Positions 12,130 through 26,701 of a DNA stretch of 31,094 nucleotides are shown in pieces. Location: IMG/VR virus record IMGVR_UViG_3300025646_000207, positions 1-31,094 of that record. One strand, given 5' to 3'. Made by a program: the position numbers and the translations under genes. Each line of letters begins with the position of its first letter. The stretch's first letter is position 1. Origin of the DNA: a virus. Taxonomy: Duplodnaviria > Caudoviricetes. Under the pieces are notes generated by a model that was not told the DNA's origin, did not search any database, and was given only the letters and a program-made list of their open reading frames with translations.

Positions 12130-12416
12130 TTTGAATATTTCTCTGCAAATCCGCCGCCGTAGTCCTTCTCCTCGTCTATAGACCCCTTCTCGCTTAAGTC
12201 CTTCACAAACTGATCCAGCTTCTGCATCTCAAGGATGAGCTCCTTGCAGTCAACAGCCGTTTGCTTGATAGACTGAAGCTCAGCCTTACGTGCGCTGCCA
12301 TTGATCTCAGGATCGACAGGCTTCTTTACCTCCTCGATCATGTTGTCTATGGCAACCTCCATGCTCTTCATCAACCTTACGGCTGCGTCTACGGTCTTGA
12401 ACTTATCCTGTGACAT
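12126..12416 (-). CDS. Helical protein, candidate terminase small subunit (96 aa)
   Basis: Helical, acidic C-terminus ending GFAEKYSK; position upstream of the terL/portal module (inference). Confidence 0.45.
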   Translation of the reverse strand: MSQDKFKTVDAAVRLMKSMEVAIDNMIEEVKKPVDPEINGSARKAELQSIKQTAVDCKELILEMQKLDQFVKDLSEKGSIDEEKDYGGGFAEKYSK

Positions 12417-12981
12417 ACATAATATCTTCTTCCCTCACGCGAAAATACACTCGATCATCTATAGTAACCTCGTAGTCAGAGTTCTTCTTAAAACCTACTT
12501 TATCATTTAGTTGAACGTCTATATCGTAACCTACTGGTAAACAAGTAACTATAGCTTCGTTTTTAATCTTTTTGTTTAAGTGATCTAATATAATCAACTC
12601 AGAATCAATGACTTCCTCTTCTTTAGTTGACTCAAGCAAGAACCACTTAGACAGGCAGTGTATCTCCCCGTCCTTGTTCTTGTAAGCAAAAGCTTGCGAC
12701 ATGGTAGGTCGATCTGGATCGTAGTGAACGAAGTACTTGTCTTCCTCCCAATCGAGCTTCTGACCTCCGTTGATAACCACCAAATGGTGGAAGTACAGGG
12801 TGTCGCCAACAGCTACAGGGGTGTCGTACTTCTTCGGCGTTGCCACTACCTCACCTTCAACTACTCTGTGCTTAAACTCATCGAACTTATTGTCTACGAA
12901 CAACTTAAGGCCGTTACTTAAAGTAATTTCGTCGTTAAGAGGCTTTTCTATTTTGACAATGAACGATTTAATAGAATTCAT
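12403..12981 (-). CDS. groES: GroES-like co-chaperonin with two tandem domains (192 aa)
   Basis: ITLSNGL...EGEVVATP...VAVGDTLYF and NEAIV...VQLNDKVGF...YEVTIDDRVYFRVREEDIM both resemble Cpn10. Confidence 0.7.
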   Translation of the reverse strand: MNSIKSFIVKIEKPLNDEITLSNGLKLFVDNKFDEFKHRVVEGEVVATPKKYDTPVAVGDTLYFHHLVVINGGQKLDWEEDKYFVHYDPDRPTMSQAFAYKNKDGEIHCLSKWFLLESTKEEEVIDSELIILDHLNKKIKNEAIVTCLPVGYDIDVQLNDKVGFKKNSDYEVTIDDRVYFRVREEDIMYVTG

Positions 12982-25001: not shown

Positions 25002-25177
25002 GAGTGTTTGTGAGTTTGGAGAAACGCAAGGGATCGTGGGTAGTGTGCGTGAGGAGGAGGGAAGACGGAACAGAAACGAAGGGAGTAAAGGGTTACTTCA
25101 ACAGGAAGTTTGAAGCAGTTAAAGAAGCCAACAAGATGGCTGAGTTGATAAACACAGAAGTAGTAATAAAGCAATGA
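24980..25177 (+). CDS. Hypothetical basic protein (~65 aa)
   Basis: ATGA overlap with the MTase start; start codon uncertain. Confidence 0.55.
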   Translation: MRDVPNIRVFVSLEKRKGSWVVCVRRREDGTETKGVKGYFNRKFEAVKEANKMAELINTEVVIKQ

Positions 25178-26082
25178 CACACGCAAGCTTATTTAGCGGA
25201 ATCGGAGGATTTGAATTGGCAGCGGAATGGGCGGATCTGGAGAACATATTCTCATGCGAGATAGAACCATTCAATCAACGAGTACTAAAACACCACTTTC
25301 CAAACACAGAATTACACACAGATGTCAAAGAACTACAAGCAGCTAAGTATAGAGGACGAATTGACGTCCTCACAGGAGGATTCCCATGCCAACCCTACAG
25401 CACAGCAGGACTCCGAAAAGGAAAGCACGACGAACGCCATCTATGGCCCGAAATGCTTAGAGTCATTCGGGAATGCCAGCCACGTTGGGTTGTGGGCGAA
25501 AACGTTCGCGGGCTTGTTAGTTGGAACGAGGGATTGGTCTTCGAAGAGGTGCACACTGATTTGGAACGTGAAGGCTACGAAGTACAAGCGTTTATACTTC
25601 CAGCTGCAAGCAAAAACGCGCCGCACAAACGAGACAGAGTTTGGTTTGTTGCCCACTCCAAACAGCTACGATTGGAACACGGCCAGATCGAAGGAGTCGT
25701 GGAACAAGGCGATAGAAAAGCACAAGGGAACACTACAGGTAAACCTGCGGCAGATGGCGAAGTTCGGGTTACTACCAACACCAACAGCGACGGATTACAA
25801 GGGAGCATATCCCCCGACGAGCATCGACAAGAACCCAGCGAGAAGAGGACTGCTTCGGAACGTATATCAGTACACGGGGGAGGAATATCATTCGAGAAAT
25901 TCCCAACTCAATCCCCGATTTGCGGCGGAGATGATGGGCTTCCCACCGAACTGGACGGAATCACCTTTTCTAAGTGGAGAAAAGAAAGCGTGAAGGCATA
26001 TGGCAACGCCATCGTTCCTCATATAGCTTATGAAATATTTGAGAGCATAAAAGAATACGAGAAAATAAGCTACCAATCATAA
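25174..26082 (+). CDS. C5-cytosine DNA methyltransferase, alpha (catalytic) polypeptide (302 aa)
   Basis: Motif I SLFSGIGG, IV GGFPCQ, VI GENV, VIII PHKRDRVWFV, X YGNAIVP; motif IX not recognisable in this frame. Confidence 0.93.
   Translation: MTHASLFSGIGGFELAAEWADLENIFSCEIEPFNQRVLKHHFPNTELHTDVKELQAAKYRGRIDVLTGGFPCQPYSTAGLRKGKHDERHLWPEMLRVIRECQPRWVVGENVRGLVSWNEGLVFEEVHTDLEREGYEVQAFILPAASKNAPHKRDRVWFVAHSKQLRLEHGQIEGVVEQGDRKAQGNTTGKPAADGEVRVTTNTNSDGLQGSISPDEHRQEPSEKRTASERISVHGGGISFEKFPTQSPICGGDDGLPTELDGITFSKWRKESVKAYGNAIVPHIAYEIFESIKEYEKISYQS
25322..25993 (+). CDS. Overprinted MTase beta polypeptide, variable region + motif IX (223 aa, +1 frame inside alpha)
   Basis: Two LLPTP modules and QLNPRFAAEMMGFPPNWT (motif IX-like); its paralog downstream is conserved in this frame. 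Confidence 0.82.
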   Translation: MSKNYKQLSIEDELTSSQEDSHANPTAQQDSEKESTTNAIYGPKCLESFGNASHVGLWAKTFAGLLVGTRDWSSKRCTLIWNVKATKYKRLYFQLQAKTRRTNETEFGLLPTPNSYDWNTARSKESWNKAIEKHKGTLQVNLRQMAKFGLLPTPTATDYKGAYPPTSIDKNPARRGLLRNVYQYTGEEYHSRNSQLNPRFAAEMMGFPPNWTESPFLSGEKKA

Positions 26083-26701
26083 ATGTCAAGAACTTACAAG
26101 CAAATAAGCATGAAGGACGAATTAACGTCATATCAGTACGCCACCTGCGGTCAGAGATGCTTAGACTCATTTGAGAAGCTACCCCGACCTACGTTGTGGG
26201 CGAAAAAGTTTGCGGCCTTATTGATTGGTCGGTCGGGCTGGTGTTCGAAGAGATGTGTGCTGACTTGGAGGTTGAAGGGTACGACATACAACCGCTCTTA
26301 CTTCCTGTTGTATGCAAAGAAGATCCCCACCGACGGGAATGGGTTTAGTTTGCTGCCTACTCCAACAACGAAGAACGTGACGGGCGGCGCGGTGCAAGTG
26401 AACGAAAACGGCAAGAGGCAAAACAAAGGCGGCACGGAATTCAGCGCACAGCTGCACGATCTAGCGAAGTCAGGAATGCTGCCTACGCCCAAAGCACAGG
26501 AAAACAGGGACAACGCTTCAGGAAGTTCCCAACTTTCGCCCCGATTTGTAGCGGAGATGATGGGTTTTCCCGTGAACTGGACAGAATTACCTTTCCAAAC
26601 TGGCGAGCCAAAAGCATATAGCTTATGAAATTTTTGAGAGTATAAAATCATATGAGAAAATCGTCTATGAAGACCTTGGTTTATTGACAAGACAATCGTA
26701 A
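26082..26701 (+). pseudogene. Decayed alpha-frame remnant of a duplicated MTase gene
   Basis: The -1 frame reads NVKNLQANKHEGRINVISVRHLRSEMLRLI*EATPTYVVGEKVCGLIDWSVGLVFEEMCADLEVEGYDIQ...; stops at 26172 and 26346; motifs I, IV and X missing; tail HIAYEIFESIKSYEKI retained at 26615-26662. Confidence 0.85.
26083..26628 (+). CDS. Stand-alone second MTase beta polypeptide (181 aa)
   Basis: Colinear with beta-1 (YKQ.S..DELTS, LWAK.FA.LL.G...W.SKRC.L.W, LLPTP, QL.PRF.AEMMGFP.NWTE.PF); ATG immediately after the alpha stop. Confidence 0.85.
   Translation: MSRTYKQISMKDELTSYQYATCGQRCLDSFEKLPRPTLWAKKFAALLIGRSGWCSKRCVLTWRLKGTTYNRSYFLLYAKKIPTDGNGFSLLPTPTTKNVTGGAVQVNENGKRQNKGGTEFSAQLHDLAKSGMLPTPKAQENRDNASGSSQLSPRFVAEMMGFPVNWTELPFQTGEPKAYSL

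Follow-up and report, generated by a model that had tools for sequence, protein, structure and literature searches.

In the methyltransferase M.EcoHK31I (YGGCCR), a large alpha chain carries motifs I–VIII as well as X, and a small subunit with motif IX is encoded wholly inside the alpha gene in another frame, according to the available text of two reports (PMC2836561, PMC3404938). The enzyme is described as functional with alpha and beta encoded by separate genes, and as tolerating N-terminal beta deletions below ~37 residues (available text of PMC2836561). Here, we describe a related locus in the virus record IMGVR_UViG_3300025646_000207 (Duplodnaviria; Caudoviricetes), analysed over its positions 1 to 31,094; this whole stretch of 31,094 nucleotides (nt) is called the window hereafter. 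It contains an alpha chain with a nested small subunit, beta1, followed by a free-standing small-subunit gene, beta2. We conclude that beta2 is a free copy of the nested subunit, which likely pairs with alpha and gives it a target that beta1 does not provide; we hold this reading with a probability of roughly 0.6. An earlier annotation made from the letters alone (the original prediction) had likened the locus to M.EcoHK31I, with beta in an alternative frame, and the layout of alpha and beta1 is indeed the same in the consulted parts of both reports.

A free-standing small-subunit gene behind a nested pair

The beta2 gene (26083–26628, + strand) encodes 181 amino acids (aa), and its ATG abuts the TAA of alpha, which confirms the claim of an open beta frame of 181 codons starting directly after the alpha stop. 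Its product matches phrog_1008 (E 3.4e-15) and is 38% identical to beta1 (86/224 columns, E 5e-45). The alpha frame of this second copy is destroyed: motif I is absent, a TGA and a TAG stand at 26172 and 26346, ENV has become EKV, the GGFPCQ segment is lost by a 57-nt gap and the GNAIVP segment by a 31-nt gap. Every one of these lesions had been listed in the original prediction, which did not note that the last cassette of beta2 has also lost 60 nt in frame. The 57- and 60-nt deletions both lie upstream of motif IX and, being multiples of three, preserve the beta frame; the 31-nt deletion lies after motif IX.

Within beta2, a full LPTP cassette of 42 aa (26353–26478, +) is absent from beta1; it shares 98% identity with a cassette in the intact gene of locus L109 and has counterparts 88–93% identical in five more loci. 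The terminal cassette (26479–26532, +) is truncated to 18 aa by the in-frame 60-nt deletion, as compared to L109. It is followed by an intact motif-IX-like block (26533–26601, +), which lies in the predicted interface with alpha (residues 148–174). Downstream, the degenerate alpha tail left after the 31-nt deletion carries the second copy (26615–26661, +) of a 47-nt direct repeat, whose first copy forms part of the 3' end of alpha (26020–26066, +) and is identical to it at 42 of 47 positions. Folded alone, beta2 gave a poor model (predicted local distance difference test, pLDDT, 59) and no fold match.

Possible neutral evolution of the beta2 frame was checked by counting conserved columns broken in each frame. 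The reference set of 187 intact genes was reduced to 148 and then to 102 by dropping identical and >92% identical genes and those gapped in two blocks; conserved alpha-frame columns were those kept in at least 90% of intact genes, and intact genes were scored leave-one-out. The second copy breaks 10 of 43 conserved alpha-frame columns, whereas the intact genes break 1.4 on average and 7 at most, none of the 102 reaching 10. Only 1 of 24 conserved beta-frame columns is broken, and 38 of the 102 intact genes break as many; this difference in column damage favours selection. When a neutral model is fitted to the damage in alpha (~0.10 substitutions per site), it predicts 5.6 beta deviations (median P 0.013) or, with a looser threshold, 8.4 against the 4 observed (median P 0.024), and the chance of an open 181-codon beta frame under neutrality is 7–12%. 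Moreover, the differences between beta2 and its nearest intact genes lean to beta third positions, with a fraction of ~0.43–0.46 as compared to 0.36 ± 0.04 in 2385 intact pairs. A protein from another assembly, P0001, shares the same 19-residue deletion with an open frame and is 78% identical to beta2, its sister in a quick tree (support 98). These comparisons support the view that selection on the beta frame kept beta2 after the alpha frame had died.

The junction between alpha and beta2 is bridged by contigs of other assemblies, in runs X1 (1166 nt, no differences, possibly from the same sample as the window), X4 (151 nt, no differences) and X7 (779 nt, 24 differences, no gaps), and we rejected an assembly artefact on these grounds. 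In X7, at most 5 of ~516 beta2 bases differ from the window, compared to 44 of 960 alpha bases (P 1e-4 with all pieces, which may stem from different strains; P 0.13 for the bridging contig alone). Three listed X7 differences within beta2, one replacement and two silent changes, are too few to test. The low divergence fits either a recent spread of beta2 or strong constraint on it.

Since contigs in runs X9 and X10, from two other studies, lead from the end of alpha straight to 26676, skipping 602 and 615 nt respectively, the beta2 unit (26074–26675, +; 602 nt) is accessory and absent from close relatives. Another protein, P0124, is a near-identical alpha in which the last few residues differ. 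A search with the gene downstream of beta2 matched this phage only.

The original prediction had seen a diverged tandem duplicate of the methyltransferase region. A second copy with a wrecked alpha frame is present, but the beta2 body is not a copy of the adjacent beta1; only its ends resemble the neighbouring gene best. Among ~288 sequences compared, the first 54 nt of the copy and its tail rank first for likeness to that gene, while the beta2 core ranks only 39th and the cassette 222nd for likeness to beta1, and core, cassette and motif-IX block are far closer to other alleles. On this ranking and the contrary tree placement, a plain recent duplication of beta1 was rejected. As the simplest history, we infer that a tandem duplication came first and that one of the copies then underwent allele exchange. 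The 3' part of alpha, from ~9 nt before the beta start, would have been duplicated and its alpha-only segments then lost, and exchange would have left the bodies of beta1 and beta2 unlike. The identity of the tail repeats (42/47) would be in line with the fitted divergence.

The nested pair, its cassettes and free betas in other genomes

The alpha gene (25174–26082, +) encodes 302 aa with motifs I–VIII in residues 1–165 and motif X at the C-terminus. Residues 1–175 match PF00145 (E 2e-45, Pfam search), the chain matches phrog_363 (E 3.6e-72, PHROGs search), and M.HhaI is its top match by both sequence and fold. The Rossmann-like domain of C5 DNA methyltransferases (PF00145) is recognizable, with the catalytic motifs I (FxGxG), IV (PC), VI (ENV), VIII and X. 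The linker of residues 170–252 is unconserved and predicted to be disordered (pLDDT < 50), and no column of the alpha frame between motif VIII and motif IX is conserved among 41 aligned sequences. Beta1 is nested in the +1 frame of alpha (25322–25993, +; open reading frame of 223 aa; phrog_1008, E 2.9e-24). It holds two LPTP cassettes of 41 and 45 aa (25649–25906, +), likely target-recognition units, with 59–67% identical counterparts at other array positions in other betas, and a motif-IX-like block, EMMGFP..W (25907–25975, +), whose columns are nearly invariant in the family alignment. Motif IX is absent from alpha, and the beta block occupies the place expected for it. The label motif IX and the motif numbering for the family are used here by analogy with M.EcoHK31I. 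Neither beta1 nor beta2 matches a Pfam family; there is no HsdS homology and there are no HsdM or HsdR partners. The flanking proteins scanned, in which small open reading frames were partly covered, include no cognate restriction endonuclease next to the gene, and a promoter and terminator scan of the locus gave nothing interpretable.

The nested pair is widespread: a motif pattern suggests that ~2300 viral and ~230 genome stretches carry it. In 290 viral and metagenome loci, 292 motif-IX matches were found; 231 of them had an intact alpha frame around them, 50 were interrupted by the end of a contig, and the remaining 11 were of other kinds, three of the latter being beta2 of the phage under study. 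The beta frame consists of a conserved N-terminal core, an array of 1–5 exchangeable cassettes of ~40 residues and the motif-IX block, the array sitting between the positions of motifs VIII and IX. LPTP units have a median length of 41 residues, and 151 distinct betas carry none (1 beta), one (35), two (73), three (33), four (8) or five (1). The 295 cassettes fall into 111 clusters, and 101 of them have a twin at least 75% identical in a beta whose core is less than 65% identical; array position or size differs in 143 of 192 such twin pairs. Sequence comparison thus indicates that cassettes move between betas as blocks. We infer that beta carries the specificity and that cassettes act as DNA-recognition units, which departs from the published M.EcoHK31I assignment. 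Gene callers miss most nested betas, so that phage methylation potential is probably under-read.

Departures from the standard layout were seen in several places. In the Bacteroides-group loci L292 (1300–2560), L307, L314, L330, L354 and L366, beta (303–353 aa) is open but stops interrupt alpha, several of them where a Trp is conserved; either beta is kept while alpha dies in place or these are plain pseudogenes. Frameshifts in L504 (genome G1294; 1272–2732) and L308 join an N-terminal alpha part to the cassette and motif-IX part of beta in one frame, possibly as single-chain forms or as broken genes, and L223 and L246 show the reverse swap, an N-terminal beta part continuing into a C-terminal alpha part. 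One stop falls within the N-terminal alpha match in the phage loci L039, L055, L056, L060 and L079, reflecting either a broken alpha or another genetic code. In mycobacteriophages (H55–H64, H86, H88), two adjacent 'DNA methylase' genes lie under the match to alpha residues 1–165, as split or overlapping forms. Genomes G985 (11 matches on six contigs), G962 and G924 contain several separate alpha/beta loci, and mixing of subunits in trans could occur there.

A search for orphan betas beside alpha/beta loci, as the original prediction had suggested, came out differently in viruses and in bacterial genomes. No other free beta was found among the 142 distinct nested viral and metagenome loci (of 185) with at least 800 nt downstream. 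In GenBank phages, 64 records match beta2, each at one place, and the four inspected are nested pairs. Two tandem-pattern scans of viral contigs returned nothing, and they carry no weight since they had no positive control and also missed the phage's own contig. In genomes, we used a pattern scan (121 loci) and four profile searches covering 401, 401, 401 and 235 genomes, with a match in 24, 15, 16 and 23 of them; at most ~30 loci per search were classified, and alpha stops were counted within 450 nt before motif IX. The retrieved loci contain at least 167 distinct motif-IX frames, of which 155 are nested in an open alpha frame, 6 have alpha stops and 6 lack an alpha signal. Of these last 6, four are free betas that immediately follow an intact pair, and the remaining two are a cut locus and a frameshift fusion.

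The four free betas belong to three Bacteroidota genomes, G001 (Pedobacter albus), G690 and G398, the last with two in a row, each of which overlaps the upstream stop by 17 nt. Their former alpha frame contains 5–15 stops and no alpha profile signal. For likely orthologous pairs of free betas, the nonsynonymous divergence (dN) is 0.50–0.53 and the synonymous divergence (dS) is 3.3 or saturated, compared to a dS of ~0.8 for the nested pairs. All four are shortened at the N-terminus where motif IV of alpha was overlapped, which, by analogy, would agree with the N-terminal deletions that M.EcoHK31I beta tolerates. Read by eye, the free betas of all four loci (the phage, G001, G398 and G690) hold cassettes that the resident beta lacks, and one cassette occurs in the nested beta of G001 but on free betas in G398 and G690. 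In a quick tree (99 columns, with long branches meeting), long branches separate the Bacteroidota free betas from beta2, which is placed among the nested betas of phages. They are therefore probably of separate and older origin, and at least two origins of free betas appear likely. The proposal that an overprinted gene is being released from its overlap is borne out by an early state in the phage and a late state in the three genomes. The idea that specificity would be extended by adding free beta cassettes gains partial support: free betas recur with cassettes that the resident lacks, but additional cassettes are usually gained in cis (1 to 5 per beta) and free betas are a rare addition.

The G001 element carries relaxase and MobC genes, and, judged by eye, the same downstream genes recur in G398 and G690. 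Two unannotated gene families also have tandem paralogues just downstream of the free betas (L447, 3708–5839 and 516–3701; L448, 4438–6704; L532, 8630–12792), and three 200-aa and two 530-aa paralogue copies lie downstream in G398, a duplication-prone region.

Predicted pairing with alpha and competing explanations

Structure prediction of alpha with beta2 supported docking: the complex model scored 0.89, while the best of three controls reached 0.29. The runs share at least 81% of contacts, the partner pLDDT is at least 76, and the mark set for the score is reached by 116 of 157 solved pairs and by 2 of 215 mismatched pairs. The predicted contacts of beta2 with alpha involve its core (residues 36–80), the LPTP junctions and motif IX (148–174), the motif-IX block of beta touching the motif-X helix of alpha; most of the full cassette (100–126) and the alpha linker lie outside these contacts. 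In the mechanism that we propose, beta2 would be translated by coupling to the stop of alpha and would dock through its core hairpin and motif IX, and its cassettes would serve as target-recognition units. The alpha–beta1 and alpha–beta2 forms would then coexist, widening the set of methylated sites and shielding the phage from host restriction, and the free gene would be released from the need to hold two frames open.

Several results weigh against this reading, and they are best considered with the alternatives that they bear upon. The beta2 gene could be a once useful unit that is now decaying, an early pseudogene still open by chance. Near-identical phages (X9, X10) do without it. The 60-nt deletion leaves it with the shortest of 150 terminal cassettes (the next shortest has 27 aa); this cassette is shorter than in P0001 (18 vs 33 aa), relative to which residues have been lost, and one conserved Gly has become Ser (G69S), so that erosion may be under way. 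The statistics also have weaker sides: for the least favourable starting alleles, the neutral model gives P 0.23 (0.58 with the looser threshold), a direct Fisher test of 10/43 against 1/24 gives P 0.08 by itself, and the differences between beta2 and P0001, at 2 of 37 conserved and 9 of 57 variable columns, give P 0.19. The chance of an open neutral frame (0.07–0.12) is low but not negligible. Even so, the beta2 core and motif IX match those of intact genes in their degree of conservation, beta2 has diverged less than alpha in X7 (at the P values given above), P0008 has an even shorter stub after the same cassette, and old free betas persist in other genomes. We regard decay as unlikely.

The docking result calls for caution of another kind: the prediction drew on family alignments and its parts make up a well-known fold, so that the high score shows resemblance to the family and may not reflect the beta2 copy itself. 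An intact predicted interface beside one truncated cassette would equally suit an inactive partner that titrates alpha and thereby limits or times methylation, for example, because of methyl-directed restriction or self-toxicity, and such a decoy would also need a selected core and motif IX. It would have no need, however, of a full cassette with 98% identity to one in an intact gene, of cassettes still recognizable between deeply diverged free betas, or of two different free betas as kept in G398, and we consider a damping role rather improbable. The assignment of specificity to beta meets its main difficulty in the published work: the original prediction had cited M.EcoHK31I for beta as the specificity subunit, and this does not stand, as the consulted parts of PMC3404938 and PMC2836561 assign the recognition domain to alpha and leave beta with motif IX only. 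In addition, the beta profile, including its motif-IX block, matched no solved structure, and the cassette profile scored at best -4.2 bits against one multispecific enzyme, SPbeta MtbP, below shuffled controls; cassette recognition of DNA is for these reasons kept as a conditional assignment. If specificity lay in alpha and beta were structural, the extra gene would merely raise beta dosage, which could be useful if internal starts are weak. This explanation seems improbable at the present locus, where the variable region of alpha is predicted to be disordered and has no conserved column, the beta frame holds cassettes that are both conserved and shuffled, and every free beta differs from its resident in cassette content. 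A non-coding role as a silent donor of cassettes to the nested gene by recombination is similarly hard to credit, although the alpha frame stays open across the full cassette of beta2, the LPTP junctions offer shared homology and an Erf-like annealing protein gene lies 450 nt downstream. A donor needs neither an ATG abutting the stop of alpha, nor an open frame, nor motif IX, and the free betas of G001, G398 and G690 have 5–15 alpha-frame stops within 450 nt, which would bar their transfer into a nested gene. We thus favour beta2 as an alternative partner of alpha with a target of its own.

The window is a phage contig with terminase and portal genes; Erf-like, exonuclease and primase/helicase genes lie downstream of the locus. 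Sequencing runs sharing half or more of its words are from freshwater, and the host is probably a member of the Bacteroidota, since gene relatives in named genomes mostly belong to this group. CCGG does not occur in the window (1–31094), as compared to ~33 sites expected from shorter words, and CTAG is strongly depleted. The absence of CCGG points to a CCGG-cutting host system avoided by the phage, and thus to restriction pressure, not to the targets of the enzyme. The window also encodes a GroES-like co-chaperonin with an N-terminal extension (12403–12981, -).

Comparison with known methyltransferase systems

The nested alpha/beta layout is already known, and the free betas are a real, selected and recurrent variant of this enzyme design, the added target being the conditional part. 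We found no literature reports of free beta genes or of nested-beta cassette arrays, in a search that covered few subscription journals and did not extend to REBASE and supplements. A preprint on a two-subunit Stx-phage methyltransferase (10.1101/2023.09.20.558713) proved irrelevant, its consulted part dealing with an adenine-annotated RNA enzyme. If our reading is true, subunit swapping instead of chain lengthening would be a third route to multispecificity for C5 methyltransferases, and target recognition in EcoHK31I-like enzymes would be relocated to the nested chain. The 111 clusters of 295 cassettes, together with the ~2300 viral stretches that have the motif, would form a natural library for cassette-to-motif rules, and the free betas would show an overprinted gene in the course of leaving its overlap through duplication, a step frequently presumed yet rarely observed. 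We give roughly even odds to a broader proposal, in which a large family of phage and mobile-element C5 methyltransferases writes its whole specificity code into the overprinted frame, in 40-residue cassettes that are shuffled, and has on more than one occasion released free specificity genes (at most two at a locus), which reprogramme one catalytic chain in an HsdS-like exchange of subunits.

The gp49/gp50 pair of Paenibacillus phage Diva (phrog_363/phrog_1008) is the same nested pair, in which GenBank labels gp50 'g49 internal gene'; it is an annotation only, with a single beta and cassettes without an assigned function. M.EcoHK31I resembles the present enzyme in its published layout, with beta wholly nested in alpha. 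It differs in having a single beta within a restriction-modification system, the consulted text describing no free second beta. There, the recognition domain is assigned to alpha; in the present enzyme, it is beta that contains the conserved, shuffled units, and alpha residues 170–252 are unconserved with a pLDDT < 50, which is an indirect test. M.AquI is also a natural two-chain C5 methyltransferase whose small chain carries motif IX together with a portion of the variable region; according to the consulted part of PMC3404938, this chain has motif X as well, which stays in alpha here.

The available account of the multispecific C5 methyltransferases of Bacillus phages (SPR, phi3T, rho11, H2 and SPbeta MtbP; PMC8936443) describes tandem target-recognition domains in the variable region, which serve several targets. 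The cassettes described here lie at the equivalent place before motif IX and are likewise tandem and exchangeable. Those enzymes are single chains, however, while the array described here occupies an overprinted frame, and a separate gene can supply extra units. Orphan or exchangeable HsdS subunits of type I restriction-modification systems, as described in the consulted parts of PMC12418389 and PMC12707154, are stand-alone specificity genes that add motifs to a shared catalytic subunit. The likeness is one of proposed working principle, for the free betas only and without homology: the HsdS systems are unrelated amino-methyltransferase complexes with a nuclease, they serve host defence and not the protection of a mobile element, and the accounts consulted give them no overlapping-gene origin, as is proposed here for beta2.

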